Below are positions 251 to 12,291 of a stretch of 29,122 bases of DNA, piece by piece. A program made the position numbers and the translations under genes. The stretch is from Tolypothrix carrinoi HA7290-LM1 (GTDB lineage Bacteria; Cyanobacteriota; Cyanobacteriia; Cyanobacteriales; Nostocaceae), in assembly GCA_019358935.1 (NCBI GenBank), contig JAHHIK010000102.1, positions 1-29,122 of the forward strand, written 5' to 3'. The notes beneath the pieces were generated by a model, which was given only the letters and a program-made list of their open reading frames with translations, was not told the origin of the DNA and did no database searches. The stretch's first letter is position 1; every line of letters begins with the position of its first letter.

Positions 251-834
251 TTGAAAACAGACAGACATGGACAGGCGTGTTTACTGTCCGATACTGACTA
301 TTCTAAAATCCGCAAGCAAATCAAAAGCAGGAAATATAAATTACTTTTTGATTTGGCTTGGTACACTGGCGAAAGATGGGGTTCGTTAGTGCAATTGCGG
401 ATTGAAGATTGTTACAACCCTTCGGGGGAGTCCTAGAGATCATATCAATTTTCGCGCTCGGACTCGCAAAGCTAGCCCGGACGGGAAACGTCAAACGCGC
501 CAAGTGTTTGTCCATGCGGTTTTACGGGAGTCGTTGCAAAACTATAAGCCAGACTCAAATTCAAGAAAGGATGTTTGCCGATCGCACTGGGGATAAACCT
601 ATAACCCTCAGATGGGCTGATATGATTCTCCGCGCTGCCGTCGAAAAAGCCGGCTTATCGGCTAAGGGGATCAGCACTCACAGCACCAGGAGGAGTTTCA
701 TTACCAAGCTGCACCGCAACGGGACTGACTTATACACAATCAAAAAAATCACCGGGCACAAGGATTTTAAGGCTTTGGAGCGTTATGTGGAAATTGACTC
801 TGACCGTGTAAAAGGAGCAATCGCTGCGTTATGA
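251..834 (+). pseudogene. Small tyrosine recombinase (phage integrase family, ~190 aa) with two frameshifts
   Basis: Three frames join into one protein (251-~430, ~430-565, ~570-834). Catalytic motifs: YTGER (R), STHSTRR (HxxR), ITGH (H), LERY (Y). Confidence 0.85.
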
Positions 835-1299
835 AAATTCTCCTATTTCACCAGCACCTACAACGGACAAGCGAATTAATTTCAGGACGCCTGCTGTTAC
901 TAGACTTGGAGTTGACCAATATTGCTAACATCTACATTGCCACGTCTGGACTGCCCAATAATCAAAAATTTGATTGCCTCTCGTCCCCAGGCAGAGGACC
1001 GATTCCTGCCAATAACGTTATTGGCGTTGACTGCTACCAAGTTTCAACCACACCTATATATATGCCAGAAGTTAAGGGCGTTGAGGGTAACTTTTACAAA
1101 ATTAACCCGCATATGGTGACGGTTAATGGCGTGGAGCGCGGTGACTTTGGGGTGCATTTTGACGCAAATCTACCGGGCAGCAGCGGGTGCGTAGTGCTGC
1201 GAACATCTGTAGGTTGGCAAGCCTCCCTTGAAAGACATGAAAGTTTTATTAACCTTTGGGGTTAAACAAGTCCCCTTATTAGTGAGTTACTGCCGATGA
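831..1299 (+). CDS. Tlde1/L,D-transpeptidase-like hypothetical protein; C-terminus probably frameshifted
   Basis: Motif GDFGVHFDANLPGSSGCVVL resembles the H...SxGC active site of the YkuD/Tlde1 fold. A plausible C-terminus KDMKVLLTFGVKQVPLLVSYCR* lies in another frame and ends at 1299. ATGA overlap with the recombinase stop. Confidence 0.55.
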
Positions 1300-1600: not shown

Positions 1601-2153
1601 CTAACTCCTAAAACTTCGGATCAGCGCGATTATCTCCTGGGGGGATTGTCCGTCAAGAATTGCTTTTTCTACTGCCTGCTTTTTTGACTTAGCCTTATTG
1701 CTTGTGACACTGCCAATATAGACGCGGTGTAGTTTCCTACCCTCCATCCAGGTGTAACGATAATACCAATATTTATTGGTTCCTCTCTCTACCCAGTATT
1801 TTTCAACCGAATGGGTAGCTTTTTCATCACTTAGTTGAGAGTATAATTTCCGCTCGTGTTGGTGAGCAAACTTTAAGGTATCTGATGTAACTTGCTCACC
1901 AACACTTTTACACGCAGAGTCAGAATCAGGAAGTTGCTCACCAACACTCGGTTTTTGTTGGTGAGCAAAAAGTTTATCTACGCCAAAGTCGAGAGCCTTG
2001 CACTCAACTGATGGCAAGAATGCACACGTTACAGTATCGCTGGTTTCCTCTATTTCATCCCAGTAAGGATCGTGTTGGGGAGCAGGGATTAGAGACCCAG
2101 GAGAAGGGGACCAGGGGAGAAAGTCGTCGAACGCTTGATAGTTGCGTATACAT
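1601..2153 (-). CDS. Mobile-element hypothetical protein with SVGEQ/FAHQ repeats and aromatic/basic C-terminal domain; one frameshift near the start
   Basis: The frame of ORF 1601..2017 stays open upstream (FDDFLPW...APQHDPYWDEIEE). ATG at 2153 gives MYTQLS in the adjacent frame. C-terminus contains KYWYYRYTWMEGRKLHRVYIGS. Confidence 0.6.
1856..2085. repeat. Five copies of a 13-14 bp motif (G)TGTTGGTGAGCAA in mixed orientation
   Basis: Copies at 1856-1869 (+), 1892-1905 (-), 1934-1947 (-), 1956-1968 (+) and 2072-2085 (+, degenerate). Confidence 0.85.
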
Positions 2154-2353: not shown

Positions 2354-2638
2354 TCATTGACTATGCGCCTCCGAACGCTTGGGCGGTCCAAAATCGTCTG
2401 GAAGTTGGTCTAGAGTTACTCCCAAAGCGCGGCATAAAGCTTTGGTCTGGGAAATAGTCAACTTTGGCTTGTCCTCTCCACTTTCCCAACGACTAATAGC
2501 TGATTGATTGAGACTTTTAGTCCCAGTCATATCAGGAATTTTTCTAGCCAAATCAGTCTGTGACAAGCCAACAGCTTCTCGAAGTATCTGTAGGCGGGGC
2601 ATTTCTTCTGGATTTTGTACACGCTTCTTTTTAGGCAT
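2354..2638 (-). CDS. XRE-family helix-turn-helix transcriptional repressor
   Basis: LREAVGLSQTDLARK...QSAISRWESG...LCRALGVTLDQL is an HTH_3/XRE signature. Confidence 0.9.
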   Translation of the reverse strand: MPKKKRVQNPEEMPRLQILREAVGLSQTDLARKIPDMTGTKSLNQSAISRWESGEDKPKLTISQTKALCRALGVTLDQLPDDFGPPKRSEAHSQ

Positions 2639-2651
2639 TCTAGCAATTTAT

Positions 2652-2696
2652 ATGCGTGTACGCATTGACAGCTAGAGCCGTTATGCGTATACTCAT
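2652..2696 (+). promoter_or_regulatory. Sigma70-type promoter overlapped by two palindromic putative operators
   Basis: TTGACA 2665-2670, 17-bp spacer, TATACT 2688-2693. Palindromes ATGCGTgtACGCAT 2652-2665 and ATGCGTatACTCAT 2683-2696. Confidence 0.75.
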
Positions 2697-3357: not shown

Positions 3358-3824
3358 TCCACCACCACCAAAACCCAAACAACCGAAACAACCAAGACAG
3401 CGGTATAAGACATTACCTTTATTACCCCGTGCCGACGCCCGTTTTAACACGAGATTCAAACGGGCGGCTCGTCGCCTCACCCCGCCCCAACAAAGTTTAG
3501 TTGTAAGTTGAGGACTCGCCTATGAGGAAATAATGTTCGCTTTCTTTTTCAAATGACTACAATTACCATTTTTTGCCTGGGGGATTAGTTTTAATCCCCC
3601 TTATTTAGGGACCTGCCAATCATGAACGAAACAACCCAAACAGACACAAAAAAACCCAATTCGCTTACGTCAACGCGCGATCGCTGTACTTACTTTCAAA
3701 GAAGAAGAAATTAGGATTGTTAGTCGATTCTGTGACTATGTACGACGCCACTTGTTACGCAAGTATACTCCGACAAACTAACCCTCACTCTAAATTTTCA
3801 GTGAGATTTTTATCTACCACTACC

Positions 3825-4457
3825 TATGCCGATTAAAAGCATCACCTACAAGCGGGTTTGTGAATCTGGGGAACATTGATGTCAAAAACCCTTGAGGCTA
3901 CTTCCATCATCATATGAAGGGGGTTGCAGGTTTCGGGTGTGGGGTGTAGGGAACCCCATAATTAAAATCAGGGGTTTCTCTCCAAGGATGCCGTATCTTT
4001 CGACGGCAGTCCCACCAGGTGGGGAAACCCGCCCACGCGGCTGCCTCCACTACGTGCCTCAAAATACATCTTTTTTATTTTTCCATACTTAAAAGTACTT
4101 GCTCTGTACCCTTTCCTTCGGGGCTTTTTCGACATGCAACCCCACACCCCACAACGCCACTTGCTTACTGCTGTGGAAACCCGTCCACCGCAGTGGCTCC
4201 CCCACACCCCACCCCGAAGGGGCTGGTCAATGAAGGTGACGATGCGGCGCGGGAAGCGCGAGGAGTTGATTGCTTTTGTGGAGGGAAATCTTTTTCCACC
4301 CCAAGCCGTAAGCGCTCTTGTAGAAAACAGCGCTTTCCAAGCCCTCGCTGCAACCGCCCAAAGCCAAGCCGAAACTCTTGAAATTGCAAGAAGCATAGAA
4401 ACTGCGTTACCCGAACCATCCGCTGACACGGAAGACACAAACATTCCGCCATTTTAG
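3825..4457 (+). pseudogene. Element hypothetical gene interrupted by a ~310-bp repeat insertion
   Basis: 5' part MPIKSITYKRV/NLGN/SKTLEATSII (frameshifted). 3' part NEGDDAARE/EELIAFVEGNLFPP...DTNIPPF*. Confidence 0.5.
3914..4236. mobile_element. Non-autonomous MITE-like composite repeat insertion
   Basis: Flanked by ATGAAGG direct repeats (3914-3920, 4230-4236). G-rich left end (GGGGTTGCA, GGGTGTGGGG) is complementary to C-rich right part (TGCAACCCC, CCCCACACCC). Two internal GGAAACCCG(C/T)CCAC units. Confidence 0.55.
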
Positions 4458-4778
4458 GGAACACATTATAAACGCGATCGCGCTCAGGTACATTCGACTG
4501 TTGCTGTTGCGCGATCGCCTACTCCAAAAAATCGATTGCTGAAATTAGAGTATGAGCCATATTATCATTTCTGTGCCGTCTCTGTACACCTGTAAACTAC
4601 CGAGCCAAGGTTGGATTAATGAGCGCCTTAATCCGCCAAGTTCAATATGACGATTTAAATTATATCCCCATAGCACTTGTGACATAGACGCGCTCTGTAC
4701 AAGACTTGCTTGATAATTCTGACAAGCAAAGGGGTTTTACGATCGTCACAGATTAGGCATGATCGGAGGTTTGAATTT

Positions 4779-5000
4779 ATGCGATTAGAAAACGATGAAG
4801 TCGTAATGGATAAGGAGGAATTTTTAATTAATTCCTTACTTACAGGAATTGCCTGTCAATTACTCGCAAAAATTAGGAAAGAGGAAGTAAGTCATTGGAT
4901 GGAATGTTTATCTGAAGAAGCAGCTGAACAATACAAACAAATGTCTCCCAAACAGCGCGAAGACATGATTAACGCCTACGTACAAATCAGCCAACAATAA
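4779..5000 (+). CDS. Small hypothetical protein (73 aa)
   Basis: Shine-Dalgarno GGAGGT at 4765-4770 before ATG 4779. Stop TAA 4998-5000 abuts the hammerhead. Confidence 0.65.
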   Translation: MRLENDEVVMDKEEFLINSLLTGIACQLLAKIRKEEVSHWMECLSEEAAEQYKQMSPKQREDMINAYVQISQQ

Positions 5001-5057
5001 CGCCTGACGAGGCTACTTAACCCAGTAGCCGAAACGTGGGATTGTTCCCACGTCGCG
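5001..5057 (+). ncRNA. Type I hammerhead ribozyme
   Basis: Stem I CGC 5001-5003 / GCG 5055-5057. Core CUGACGA 5004-5010. Stem II GGCUACU/AGUAGCC (7 bp, loop UAACCC). GAAA 5031-5034. Stem III CGUGGGA/UCCCACG (loop UUGU) plus A-U. GUC triplet with predicted cut after C5054. Confidence 0.9.
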
Positions 5058-5250
5058 GACCCTTGTCCAAACCAGTCATGCCCCAAAAATGCGTGGGATT
5101 GCGGCGTTGAGCTTGAAAAGCGCCATTTATGGCGTTTATTCTTTCAAGCGCAGCTATCCCGCCTCACTTGGGTTTCCCAGTTCGTTTAGGAGTGAATCGC
5201 GCCCCTTTTATGTGGGGCGTTAGGGTGATTCTGGCGAGAAAAAACTGGGT
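5055..5250 (+). ncRNA. Candidate IS110 bridge-RNA-like structured RNA
   Basis: Small 5' hairpin GGAC/GUCC (5057-5068). Domain 1 at 5082-5172 (CCCAA/UUGGG, GGGAU/AUCCC, GCUUGAAA/UUUCAAGC, GCGCCA/UGGCGU). Domain 2 at 5176-5249 (CCCAGUU/AACUGGG, internal loop, GAAUCGC/GUGAUUC, GCCCC/GGGGC). Lies directly upstream of an IS110 gene. Confidence 0.55.
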
Positions 5251-5294
5251 TTAACCGTAACCAAAATAAACATCTACACCTAACAACACAAACC

Positions 5295-6693
5295 ATGACA
5301 ATTGAATTAAAAACTCTGGGAGTTGATGTTTCAAAATCATCTGTCACAGTCCATCTACTATCATCTTACCCAAAAGGAGGTTTAAAAAGTTATTGGGAGA
5401 AAACTAGGAACAAAGCATCAACTTTCTACCCAACTTTCTACAGCAACCCGGATGCTAAGAAAAAACAGAAAAGTGCTTTTGACTTTGCTGATTATATATT
5501 TGAAAGTAAACCGGATGTAGCAATTTTAGAGCCGACGGGCAATCATTACTCACGGCTCTGGGCGTCGATACTCAAAAATTTGGGGGTAAAAATTCGCGCT
5601 TGTGGGACATATCGAATTGCGGCGCTATCGTGGCTCTAAGAATCTGCCGGCGGAAATCCGACGCAAAGTCGTGCTTTGGCAATGGCTGCATATCCCCTCG
5701 ATGTGGAACACCACACAGAAGACGGGGAATTAAATTTAAGATACTTTCTCATGCACCGTCCTGACCCTATCGACGAGTTAAGAGAACTGTGTCAGCAATT
5801 GGAACATCTCAACCGCGTGCAAAGCCCGATAATTAATTATGCACGGCAAATGTTAGCTTGGCAGTTAAGAGAAGTTGCTCACCTCAAGGTGAGCAACTAC
5901 TTTGTCGGGTTTTGTTCCCCCATTATGGGGATGGCTTGCGGGTTTGGAATCTGAGGTGTCACCGCAAAGCTGGAAACGGTTGCAAAATCAATATAGTAAA
6001 TCGATAGCAATTGCAAAAGGTTTAAATATTGACCCGCTGTTGCAGCTTCATGCAAGTTGGGTGTGTGATATCAAAAAAACAGAGCAGCTCTTGGAAGGGG
6101 AAATTGGCAAACTGTTGTCTGACGACTGTTTCAAAATCTACAACCAGATTTTTGACTTATTTGGTTTTGGATTACGAGTGCGCGAAGCGCTTGCTTAGTC
6201 GAATTTATCCGTTTGAGGCTTTTTTAAGTGCCGACGGGAAACCGTTGATTGAGTATGAAGTCAGAGAAGTTAAGAAAGTGGAGAAAGAGAAGAGCGATGG
6301 GGTGAATGTAATTAAGCGATCGCCCGGAGATATCAAACGGGTGAAGCGCAACTTTACTCCGCGATGCATTTAAAATGCGGATCGGAATGGGGACAGTGCT
6401 GGAGCAATCGGGTGATGAGTTGGTAGAAAAAGCAATACTGTTCGGCACTGTGTCGAATGGCTTTATGGCAGTATGTTTTGTGCCAAGTTGAGACTGGTAA
6501 ACTGAAGCCCAACTCGGTTACAAAGCGGCTTTTGGACTACAAAAACGCTTTAAAAAATCTCACCACCCCTCAAGGCAAGCAATTGCTAAATGGCAAGCAC
6601 TTGCAGGGTAAACTTATGGCGAAAGTTGCAAACATGCTTTTTGATGAATTGGTCAAAGCGATCGCGCACCCAACGCTCCAACGCTCCAACTAA
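5295..6693 (+). pseudogene. IS110-family DEDD recombinase/transposase with multiple frameshifts
   Basis: N-terminal RuvC-like motifs LGVDVSK, ILEPTGNHY and KSDA..ALAMA (~5657-5690). Central helical region. C-terminal Transposase_20-like AFKMRIGMGTVLEQSGD with the conserved SG serine. Spread over at least six frame segments. Confidence 0.8.
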
Positions 6694-6904
6694 CTAGAGT
6701 GAAAGTATAGAAAATAATGCTTCAAACTTCTCACAAATATTAGAGGTAATTACTACTTTATGCGTAATTCTGTCATTCTAAGCCAAATCTTAGCACAAAA
6801 AACGAAGTTGCATCTTACGCTTTATTTCCTCTTGCTCGGTAGAAACTCACTATAACAGACTTTCATTGTGTAATTTCTCTAATAATTAACATACACGTCT
6901 CGAT

Positions 6905-9206: not shown

Positions 9207-9384
9207 AGCTCAACACCTGTAAGGGAAAGGGGAAAGGGAAAAGGGAAAAGGGGTATGAAAAAAAATGCATTCCTTTACACACTCATAGTGCATTTATAGA
9301 ATGAGTGCAAGAGGTTTATTAATCACTTACAGCATAGAAAAAAATAGGGACAGGCAAAACATGCCTATCCCAGAAAATTTATAG

Positions 9385-9630
9385 AGGGGGAGAGGGGGGG
9401 ATGGGGGGATGGGGAGAGGGGGGGACGACTTGGGGAGGGGGGGACGACTTGGGGAGTATTATTCAAAAATTCTCCTTGTCTCCTTGTCTCCTTGTCTCCT
9501 TGTCTCCTTGTCTCCTTGTCTCCTTGTCTCCTTGTCTCCTTGTCTCCTTGTCTCCTTGTCCTCCTTGTCCTCCTTGTCCTCCTTGTCCTCCTTGTCCCCT
9601 TGTCTCCTTGTCCCCTTGTCTCCCTTGTCA
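9385..9630. repeat. Short tandem repeat tract: G-rich units, then (CTTGTCTC)n 8-mers and (CTTGTCCTC)n 9-mers
   Basis: Visible tandem array at ~9470-9628 and G-run repeats at ~9385-9455, downstream of the protease stop. Confidence 0.9.
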
Positions 9631-9650
9631 AGAAAGGAAGGTGCAAAAAT

Positions 9651-10898
9651 CTATTGCATTTGCTCGGGCAAAGCACCAGGACGCACAGATAAGTTGATTT
9701 TCTGCCCATTGCGACGCAATTCTAGGCGCACATCAGCCCCGATTTGACTATTTTCTACAGCCTGTTGTACGCTGGCAGAATCGGCAACTGATTGACCATT
9801 TAGCTTTTCGATGACATCACCAGCACGTATTCCCGATTTTGCAGCTGGTGAGTTAGGCACAACTTTCATGACTAACACACCTTTATCTTCATTCACGGTC
9901 AAACCGCTATTGGGATCTGAGTTGATGTTTTGCTTTAACTCAGGTGTCAAAGCCTGCATTTGAATTCCCAGATAAGGATGTTGTACTTTGCCTGTACTTA
10001 TGAGTTGATTGGAAATGCGTTGCGCTGTATTGATCGGAATCGCAAAACCTAATCCTTGCGCTCCTTGAATTATAGCTGTGTTCATGCCAATTACCTCGCC
10101 ACGGGCATTTAGCAGAGGTCCACCAGAGTTACCAGGATTAATTGCGGCATCTGTTTGAATATACTGTACTCGTCGGTCGGGTGCGCCAATTTGATAGCTA
10201 GTGCGTCCGGTAGCGCTGATGATGCCGGTAGTTACGGTATTGTCAAGACCTAGGGGATTACCGATCGCGATCGCCCATTGTCCTGGTTGTAGCTGGTCTG
10301 AGTTACCCAATTTCAATGTTGGCAAATTTTCGGCTTGAATCTTGACAACAGCGACATCTGTTAACTCATCTTTACCCATCACCTTACCTTGGAAGCTGCG
10401 CCCATCTTTGAGTATTACCTTCACCTTATCTGCACCATCTACCACATGGGCATTGGTCAAAATGCGACCATCAGCACCGATAATGAAACCAGAGCCGGTA
10501 CCCCGTTGCATCCGGTTTTGTGGTGAATTTGGTAGTTGAGAACCAAAGAAGCGTCGGAAAGCTGGATCGTTAAATTCTTCTGGTAACTGAGTTTTTACAG
10601 TCCGGGAAGCCTCAATCCGTACCACCGCTGTACCGACGTTTTGCACAACCCCGGTGATAAAGTTAGGATCTGTAGAAGCGGGTAAGGGAGGGGCAGCATT
10701 TACTGGACTAACTGCCAACTTAGATGCGCTTTGAGATATGTCTTGCTGGTGCGATGCTAAATAACCGCCGGCAAATGTCATACCCGATCCCAGCAGCACC
10801 AACGATAGATTAAAAGCTGTTTTCTTCCAAGGTGCAGCGTTAGGGGTTTTTTGAGAATAAGCGTTAAAATTATCTTTGTCTTGTGGCTGGTTTTGCAT
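9651..10898 (-). CDS. HhoA/HhoB/HtrA-family trypsin-like serine protease with PDZ domain
   Basis: GTGSGFII, TNAHVV (His), TDVAV (Asp), TDAAINPGNSGGPL (Ser), C-terminal PDZ and N-terminal hydrophobic segment. Confidence 0.95.
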   Translation of the reverse strand: MQNQPQDKDNFNAYSQKTPNAAPWKKTAFNLSLVLLGSGMTFAGGYLASHQQDISQSASKLAVSPVNAAPPLPASTDPNFITGVVQNVGTAVVRIEASRTVKTQLPEEFNDPAFRRFFGSQLPNSPQNRMQRGTGSGFIIGADGRILTNAHVVDGADKVKVILKDGRSFQGKVMGKDELTDVAVVKIQAENLPTLKLGNSDQLQPGQWAIAIGNPLGLDNTVTTGIISATGRTSYQIGAPDRRVQYIQTDAAINPGNSGGPLLNARGEVIGMNTAIIQGAQGLGFAIPINTAQRISNQLISTGKVQHPYLGIQMQALTPELKQNINSDPNSGLTVNEDKGVLVMKVVPNSPAAKSGIRAGDVIEKLNGQSVADSASVQQAVENSQIGADVRLELRRNGQKINLSVRPGALPEQMQ

Positions 10899-11110: not shown

Positions 11111-11545
11111 ATGGCAACCACATCTAATCTTCAGGTGACAATTTCCTTATCAGACCCGGATTTAGATGACCAGGAGTTGCAAGCAGAAGTGGAAAATTTG
11201 CTACCGCAGGTTAGAGAAGTGGATGGGGTAGAACAAGCAGATTTAGTGGCAGCCACAGAAACCCCGCGAAGTGCAAAGGCTTTCGGTGGCTTTTTGTGGG
11301 GAATGTTAAGTGCAGAAGTCAAACCAGCCAATATAAAAGCTTTGTTTGGATTTTTGAGCGATCGCTTCGGCAACAAACCAATTAAGCTAGCACTTAAAAC
11401 TCCTGACGGCAGAGAAATCAACTTAGAAGCCAGTAGTCGCAAAGAGTTTGAATTCGCTATGCAGCAAGCGCAGGATTTTCTCAACAATACCGAAAATACA
11501 TCAAACAGTAAAGATGGCGAAGGTAGCACTACTGATCGGGGTTAG
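11111..11545 (+). CDS. EACC1-like small protein upstream of a caspase
   Basis: Acidic N-terminus (DPDLDDQELQAEVENL), P..AK.GG motif and hydrophobic helix. Overlaps the caspase start, an arrangement typical of EACC1-caspase pairs. Confidence 0.6.
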   Translation: MATTSNLQVTISLSDPDLDDQELQAEVENLLPQVREVDGVEQADLVAATETPRSAKAFGGFLWGMLSAEVKPANIKALFGFLSDRFGNKPIKLALKTPDGREINLEASSRKEFEFAMQQAQDFLNNTENTSNSKDGEGSTTDRG

Positions 11546-12291
11546 TGAATATAAACATGGTTTAAACCCGCTACCAAGTGCTGTCAAAGATGTCGAAGCG
11601 ATGCAGCGAGTTTTAGCAAACCCAGAAATGGGTGGTTTTGCTGAAGCAGATATCACGGTGCTGAGAAATCCCCAACCGGACGATATCGCATATGCTATAT
11701 ATCATCTGTTTGCCGATCGCCAGAAAGATGACCTGCTGCTGTTTTACTTTTCTGGGCATGGCATTAAACATGACAGAGGTAAGCTTTATCTGTCAAGTTG
11801 TGCCACTAAAAAACTAAATGGCAAGCTAGTAACACCCTCAGCCGTTGCAGCTAGTGTTTTGCACGATAATATTAACGATAGCCGCTCTCAAAGACAGGTA
11901 ATTATCCTGGATTGTTGTTTTAGTGGAGCGATCGCCCAAGGCATGACCGTCAAAGATGATGGTAGCGTAAATGTGCAAGAGCAGCTAGGCGGTAAGGGAA
12001 GGGCAATCCTCACTTCTTCCAGTTCTACCCAGTACTCATTGCGTCTTGAGTTAAAACTTACCCCGGAAGTTGCTGACGCGATCGTGCGCTGAAGTTCAAC
12101 AACCATTACAGGAGTATCAGCGGAAATTAGCAGAGTACGAGGAAACGCTGCTTGAGGCAAAAGAAGCTGAGACAACCCTAAGCGAAACTACGCTCAATGA
12201 CCTGAAAGACTATCAGCAACATCTAGGGCTGAAAGATGAAGATGTAGCATCAATAGAAGAACGAATTATTGGGCAGCGAAAACCGACGTAA
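11514..12291 (+). pseudogene. Caspase-family (peptidase C14) protein, internally deleted and frameshifted
   Basis: MAKVALLIGVSEY, YFSGHG (His), IILDCCFSG (Cys). The domain stops abruptly at SSSSTQYS, joins a helical segment, shifts frame near 12085 and ends at 12291 without an effector domain. Confidence 0.75.

Follow-up and report, generated by a model that had tools for sequence, protein, structure and literature searches.

How does a bridge RNA arise when the end-junction promoter cannot be used? The window analysed here (a stretch of 29,122 nt, contig C102 of the 7.96 Mb cyanobacterial assembly G000) raises this question. It contains a hammerhead motif, a structured RNA and an IS110-family recombinase gene in tandem (Table 1), and the RNA is located kilobases from the left end of the element, so that a junction promoter cannot drive it. 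The initial annotation of the window had placed the RNA in a polycistronic transcript with no obvious promoter of its own, and this agrees with what was found, as the RNA abuts an upstream ORF. Since it lies inside an operon of small genes and kilobases from the end junction, it would be transcribed within a long mRNA. We consider it likely that the ribozyme, the bridge RNA and the IS110_2 recombinase together form the integration module of prophage-like cyanobacterial elements of 8-19 kb, in which the hammerhead frees the guide. The element ends, the core, the guide code, the anatomy of the ribozyme and its position in the operon are established at the level of sequence; the ribozyme probably frees a guide that steers the element into the chromosome.

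Every part of the hammerhead that had been annotated was found in place, with the predicted cut between C5054 and G5055. Stem III comprises 7 bp plus an A-U core pair, and the GUC triplet ends at C5054. The hammerhead core had also been said to start directly after a stop codon; this holds for stem I, which is adjoined by the TAA at 4998-5000, but not for the core, which stem I precedes. In a descriptor search the hammerhead was the single match in the window (mean of 0.0 matches in 300 Markov-shuffled windows). The Rfam hammerhead models, suggested as a check in the initial annotation, gave no match in the window at either the gathering cut-off or E<=10, and the best score among 14 loci of the family was 35.8 bits (L050) against a cut-off of 56.3 bits on RF03152. 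A CUGANGA, GAAA and UH core closed by three stems is present in the window and in the family, and the structure is classed as a hammerhead through this core motif, outside any Rfam family. The pseudoknot is gone in the window copy and in two G000 paralogues.

An IS110-family gene had been placed directly downstream of the RNA. Place and family stand, but the gene is not intact, carrying 14 indels at 5598-6434 relative to the intact orthologue at L002, and its five fragments gave no match to a Pfam family. Intact orthologues reach 464 and 463 bits with NF051857 (transpos_IS110_2; cut-off 180) and match PF01548; PF02371 is unmatched in them, the segment with the catalytic serine aligning with a weak score. 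The DEDD residues of the N-terminal RuvC-like domain (D6, E74, D117 and D120) and S363 in an SG motif of the C-terminal Tnp domain are invariant in 26 homologues, the former aligning with their counterparts in IS621 and ISCro4 and the latter with the ESG loop of these proteins. The IS110_2 clade comprises 556 protein clusters, and NF051857 is above its cut-off in 39 of the 401 sampled genomes of the phylum.

The short tyrosine recombinase of the element is broken too, and large host genes farther down the window read through. Intact host genes beside a broken element gene favour real decay over an assembly error in a multi-copy region, and the window copy is probably inactive. Many of the lesions at 5059-5064 and 5598-6434 look less like simple indels than like short segments exchanged for another word with one extra base, and they occur in the ribozyme tail and the recombinase gene alike. 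Elsewhere in the window, short repeats inside the element (3913-3981 and 4139-4229) recur at dozens of places in the genome, short tandem repeats are found upstream of a serine protease-like gene (9365-9747), and a 21-nt tandem repeat occupies the contig end (28862-29122). An apparently truncated ORF of 214 aa, presumably caspase-like by motif, lies beside a small conserved-looking ORF at 11111-12291.

Table 1. Features of the window, with positions counted from its first nucleotide.
Feature	Position	Strand	Remarks
Short tyrosine recombinase, catalytic domain only, frameshifted	251..834	+	PF00589 E 6.7e-12, tblastn in pieces; 12/15 mapped elements
Tlde1-like ORF, possible cell-wall hydrolase	831..1265	+	PF10908 E 0.0026, weak, below cut-off; 5/15 elements
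Conserved element gene of unknown function, family c1	1601..2095	-	11/15 elements
Cro/CI-type HTH repressor	2354..2638	-	PF01381 E 8.9e-10
Sigma70-like promoter consensus	2665..2693	+	11/12 consensus; divergent from repressor; candidate start of rightward operon
Small ORF	4710..5000	+	Stop codon abuts ribozyme
Type I hammerhead ribozyme	5001..5057	+	Core motif; predicted cut C5054/G5055; stem I just 3 bp
Hammerhead stem I	5001-5003/5055-5057	+	3 bp
Hammerhead core CUGACGA	5004-5010	+	
Hammerhead stem II	5011-5030	+	7 bp
Hammerhead core GAAA	5031-5034	+	
Small 5' hairpin of predicted released RNA	5057..5068	+	In homologues the hairpin loop pairs with ribozyme loop II (pseudoknot); 2 bp left in window
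Target-binding loop domain	5081..5172	+	Left guide 5109-5114 + GAA 5115-5117; right guide 5137-5142 + TTC 5143-5145
Donor-binding loop domain	5176..5249	+	Left guide 5188-5193 + GAA 5194-5196; right guide 5223-5228 + TTC 5229-5231
IS110_2 (NF051857) bridge recombinase pseudogene	5295..6693	+	Codons for first D, E and catalytic-loop S present
Right element end	6695..6703	+	Left-donor TAGAGT + core GAA
Right half of chromosomal target	6704..6709	+	5/6 match to right target guide

Guides, core and element ends

The predicted 3' product of cleavage (5055-5250) had been described as a small hairpin followed by two stem/internal-loop domains, and this structure was recovered (z = -3.89, with none of 200 shuffles as stable). 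Within each loop the left arm ends in N6-GAA and the right arm in N6-TTC; among homologues the first loop is variable and the second conserved. Both the outer and the inner stems show better pairing when their two strands come from one locus than when they are combined across loci (36 loci). This was assessed from anchored duplex energies against permutations because RNAalifold, run on a MAFFT alignment, showed two-sided change in just 2 of 21 pairs.

Guides were parsed at 36 of 49 loci (13 were not), and downstream sequence was available for 35 of the parsed loci. The left guide of loop 2 located the right end of the element at 26 of these 35, guide variants tracking the end sequence, and no clear right end was present within 320 nt at the remaining nine. 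The six bases 3' of the GAA matched the right guide of loop 1 at 4.69 of 6 positions on average (n=26), compared with 1.99 under permutation (max 2.85). At least four of the six bases matched at 24 of the 26 loci, and the flank of L060 matched at only one.

The left end of the window element lies outside the window, on the minus strand of G000 contig C52 at ~180-194. The right flank of the window element at 6704 joins C52 in two of the five relatives searched. The empty site in G001 reads TAGCTT-GAA-AGTATA and the left end in G000 TAGCTT-GAA-TCCCCA, the target guides of the window being GAGCTT and the complement of AGAATA. Each of the four elements tested yielded an empty site; those of two paralogues, C12 and C127 (found in G001 and G003), and of G149 (found in three relatives) were clean. 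Occupied and empty sites had only the GAA core in common at the junction. Another contig, C78, carries a 14-nt perfect match to the naive prediction of the left end; this match was discarded, as the empty site links the window with C52. Also ruled out was a right donor end that is the straight reverse complement of the guide (TCACCC), the actual end being TCCCCA.

A left-end motif learned beforehand was sought in 25 long regions, two of which were unparsed. It was present in 13 of the other 23 (13 of the 17 with at least 12 kb), and in 9 of 12 when only regions outside the learning set are counted. Of 14 GAATCCCCA sites, 13 carry the sequence of the locus's own guide in the five bases preceding the core (permutation mean 1.1, max 7). 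Two loci have a different right donor guide, and their left end differs correspondingly. The motif is also present at G001/L002, where the flank mismatches the locus's own guide, and no left end was found in 12.6 kb of L145. The bridge-RNA-like reading of the initial annotation is thus borne out, in that the loop guides match target and donor halves at real element ends and empty sites around the GAA core. Judged by these matches, the structured RNA downstream of the hammerhead is a bridge RNA.

G000 contains several more copies of the element family with different targets (on C12, C98, C127, C49, C30, C142, C146, C47, C59 and others). For the C12 and C127/C98 copies, the guides identify the copies' own left ends, which lie on C47 and C59, and 138 nt within each of these ends a second one is nested. 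The ribozyme is also present at the deep-branching loci L061 and L126/L207:12418-12650, where it is joined to an RNA of another type that has repeated arms and may have nested loops and a different core.

The hammerhead across the IS110_2 family

Forty nine non-redundant IS110_2 loci were screened with a looser, family-derived hammerhead pattern because the strict descriptor missed variant ribozymes. A hammerhead was present at 43 of them, and the first catalytic codon follows its cut site by 205-300 nt. The six without were L005, L044, L049, L062, L076 and L055, the last with only 149 nt of sequence present. The same pattern found a hammerhead at none of 20 loci of other IS110 genes and gave 8 non-family matches across the 7.96 Mb G000 genome. 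Conversely, a metagenome search that began from the ribozyme returned 58 matches, 53 of them non-redundant, and the recombinase gene lay downstream at 44 of these, with a contig end at 8 and the gene absent at 1. The initial annotation had named homologues without the ribozyme or the structured RNA as the result that would count against it; the homologues keep both the ribozyme and the two-loop RNA. In a quick tree the ribozyme was found in every major subclade, the ribozyme-less loci being scattered. Since all loci form a single clade with one origin, these numbers do not stand for independent events.

Across 34 aligned hammerheads, the sequence is invariant or conserved to at least 90% at most positions of the core, while stems II and III keep their pairing as their sequence varies freely. 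In all 41 copies examined the cleavage triplet reads GUC or GUA. Of 41 parsed copies, 35 can pair loop II with the tail after stem I over at least 4 bp to form a pseudoknot (10.7 on average and 20 at most under permutation), and several different sequences are used for this pairing. The stop codon of an upstream ORF falls within the span from 15 nt ahead of the core to 8 nt inside it at 34 of the 43 loci, against 11% of 864 control positions; 33 of these 34 ORFs have at least 40 codons and one is cut by a contig end. At 17 of the 43 loci this stop is the core's own UGA, and the core is therefore partly constrained as a stop codon too.

The cut site lies 56-62 nt before the first core GAA at 30 of 35 loci. 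This fixed spacing between cut and first guide bears on the main rival to guide release, namely that the cut merely tunes the mRNA. The bridge system would then be real and the hammerhead an ordinary prophage operon-processing ribozyme, which separates the early genes from the recombinase mRNA (control of stability or translation) and is unneeded for the guide. Prophage hammerheads do flank genes near integrases and cut polycistronic RNA (PMC3088659), a hammerhead of the same type precedes an unrelated small ORF in a viral record (L127), and IS621 bridge RNAs extended at both ends stay active, with a two-fold or so loss that leaves about half the efficiency (PMC13626964). Moreover, L044 and L049 have no ribozyme, yet their gene is intact and their ends match the guides, so that the ribozyme may be dispensable or recently lost. 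Against this stand, besides the spacing, the two-way linkage of ribozyme and gene, the retention of the ribozyme across recombinase proteins down to ~30% identity, and the use of the pseudoknot tail as the 5' hairpin of the RNA as well. We therefore regard a role confined to operon processing as unlikely, and release of the guide as the better reading.

Far less probable is that the hammerhead-like fold does not cleave and is a structural relic or a regulatory switch, unfolded for example by terminating ribosomes: all scores lie below the Rfam cut-offs (the best being that of L050 given above), the core UGA doubles as the upstream stop at 17 of 43 loci and the pseudoknot is lost in the window and two paralogues, but the conservation of the core beside variable, still paired stems and the GUC or GUA triplet in every parsed copy argue for a fold that cuts.

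Some variants of the ribozyme region were also observed. An extra insertion of up to ~50 nt lies between the CUGAUGA core and stem II at L033, L053, L064, L066 and L068, and at four of these five loci it holds the palindrome GCGATCGC, which we take to be HIP1. Hairpin-rich sequence replaces the hammerhead at L062 and L076 and might be another processing element; that of L062 has no Rfam match. At L201 a ribozyme and a two-loop RNA are present with no recombinase detected within 1.4 kb downstream, possibly a non-autonomous unit. The hammerhead in the viral record mentioned above (L127:3001-3062, 43.8 kb) has a pseudoknot-like tail. A tyrosine integrase is encoded nearby, and the 6 kb inspected contain no IS110 gene; this hammerhead is a possible source of the family ribozyme.

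Gene content of the elements

Left ends were located 6.8-17.8 kb upstream of the recombinase gene, so whole elements measure ~8-19 kb. They carry cargo genes and have the RNA at an internal position, and in both respects they depart from the canonical compact IS110 (~1.5 kb, recombinase only, with the bridge RNA beside the end and under the junction promoter). What the initial annotation missed is that the mobile unit is a large prophage-like element, of which the window holds a decayed copy. A common layout is seen in 14 mapped elements and in the part contained in the window. It opens with unknown genes, grouped in a module that gave tail-fibre-like and collagen matches, continues with a short tyrosine recombinase, a Tlde1-like gene, an HTH repressor and small early ORFs, and closes at the right end with the ribozyme, then the RNA and then the recombinase. 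In the window a terminator-like hairpin (3579-3600) lies downstream of the candidate promoter. The middle of the window element falls in an assembly gap, and C52 ends in a multi-copy repeat.

Among 63 proteins annotated in five chromosomal elements there were tail-fibre-like, collagen, S74, repressor and Tlde1-like matches, and no capsid protein was identified. Integration by the short tyrosine recombinase, with the IS110 module as a passenger, is highly improbable: a tyrosine recombinase bearing the motifs R, HxxR and H..Y is encoded by 12 of 15 elements, but it is a protein of ~190 aa with a catalytic domain only, no copy turned up in three elements or the viral record, and both element ends match the locus's own guides, with nothing beyond the GAA core in common between occupied and empty sites.

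Protein-based scans of viral contigs found no member of the family, and a DNA-pattern scan found two records. The IMG/VR record G442 (15,387 nt, with a 127-nt terminal repeat) encodes small and large terminase subunits, a portal, a scaffold and a major head protein, together with the ribozyme, a structured RNA and an NF051857 gene over the cut-off; PF00589 was not found in it. CheckV completeness of this record is only 18%, its RNA arms differ from those of the family, and its guides did not map to the junction. A near-identical intergenic repeat of ~30 nt occurs in two copies in this 15.4 kb viral record (L207:7107 and 14756). Two conserved cargo proteins (L129:9145-9957 and L129:10062-10631, with 267 and 29 homologue clusters) are candidate virion proteins of unrecognised fold. 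Their fold models are confident (pLDDT 90.9 and 87.7). Searches of BFVD (E<=0.001) and PDB (Z>=8) returned no match to them, and the ESM Atlas gave none that was usable.

A model for guide release and its precedents

The rightward transcript would perhaps start at the consensus promoter opposite the repressor. Within it, the hammerhead would cut at a fixed distance, separating the upstream ORFs from the message with guide and recombinase and giving the RNA a defined 5' end, whereupon the pseudoknot tail of the ribozyme may refold as the 5' hairpin of the RNA. The 3' end would not be set by the ribozyme, the product running on into the recombinase mRNA. The IS110_2 recombinase and the two-loop bridge RNA would then recombine a donor junction, T-N5-GAA-TCCCCA, with a target, T-N5-GAA-N6, the target being named by the variable loop and one GAA being left at each end. 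RNA-guided strand exchange, and excision fed by read-through transcription, are proposed here by analogy with IS621, as far as the available parts of PMC11208160 and PMC13626964 describe it. The window copy, as a decayed insertion, would need recombinase supplied in trans.

Likenesses to IS621 and ISCro4, as treated in the same portions of these two papers, comprise the DEDD and Ser recombinase and an RNA encoded upstream of it, in which a 5' hairpin is combined with a target loop that varies and a donor loop that is conserved. Left guides likewise read as the top strand and right guides as its complement, donor and target have a core in common, and the right donor guide fits best if one base is bulged out. 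In contrast, the core is GAA (3 nt) here and CT there. Each loop here has ~5+6 guide bases, with an invariant T at -6 and four arms that are pseudo-repeats, and a natural hammerhead is fused 5' to an RNA that lies far from the end junction in an element of 8-19 kb. The protein differs as well, with 390-460 aa and no match to Pfam Transposase_20. All three mentions of a ribozyme in the available text of PMC11208160 refer to an engineered HDV ribozyme, as does that in the accessible part of PMC11187229.

Expanded cargo-bearing IS110 elements (bioRxiv 10.64898/2026.08.14.744561) are likewise IS110-bounded units, of up to ~20 kb, that move whole. Their cargo is accreted and mostly plasmid or resistance DNA, and their ends are often half-matched, whereas here both ends match and the gene order is common to the elements and phage-like. 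The part of that preprint available to us does not mention ribozyme, hammerhead or cyanobact. In the Neisseria Nf and Thermus inoviruses a virus is also thought to integrate through a terminal IS110-family gene, but with other hosts and gene sets, and the sections seen of PMC3454330 and PMC11437467 mention neither bridge RNA nor ribozyme. Prophage hammerheads resemble the present one in being type I, in the pseudoknot tertiary contact and in an operon context near integrases (PMC3088659), but here the hammerhead is fixed to a guide RNA. The supplement of that paper gives at least six cyanobacterial type I matches as coordinates only, from which membership of the IS110_2 family is not readable. 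Release of a DNA-targeting guide RNA by a natural hammerhead in a phage context is described for VIPR vrRNA arrays (bioRxiv 10.64898/2026.04.26.720920); these hammerhead-interspersed arrays involve a different protein and guide and no recombination. A divergent hammerhead cluster (1,533,398), for which the accessible part of 10.64898/2026.10.21.760802 does not give the gene context, could overlap with the IS110_2-linked hammerheads.

The initial annotation knew of no hammerhead-bridge RNA fusion, and no natural one was found in the full-text literature, a scope that leaves most subscription papers and bioRxiv supplements outside. Each component has precedent; a ribozyme-fused, operon-embedded guide RNA combined with large prophage-like cargo appears to be new to the IS110 bridge system. 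It offers a natural and testable answer to how a bridge RNA arises when the end-junction promoter is unusable. The code of this bridge recombinase clade is readable from sequence, with a GAA core, ~11 guide-matched bases per site and a natural cargo of 8-19 kb, and the clade falls outside pipelines that require the two-domain Pfam architecture (such as that in the available text of 10.64898/2026.10.21.760802). A self-processing guide within a single transcript would be useful for genome engineering, particularly in cyanobacteria.

A family of prophage-like elements is also exposed that has precise ends and conserved proteins without a recognised fold. We suggest, tentatively and at somewhat less than even odds, that these elements are widespread, undescribed small temperate viruses of cyanobacteria, with a bridge recombinase as integrase, obligatory maturation of the guide by the hammerhead, and retargeting through mutation of ~11 guide bases. 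If this is true, the catalytic UGA that serves as the upstream stop at 17 of 43 loci would couple release of the guide, and hence integration or excision, to translation.
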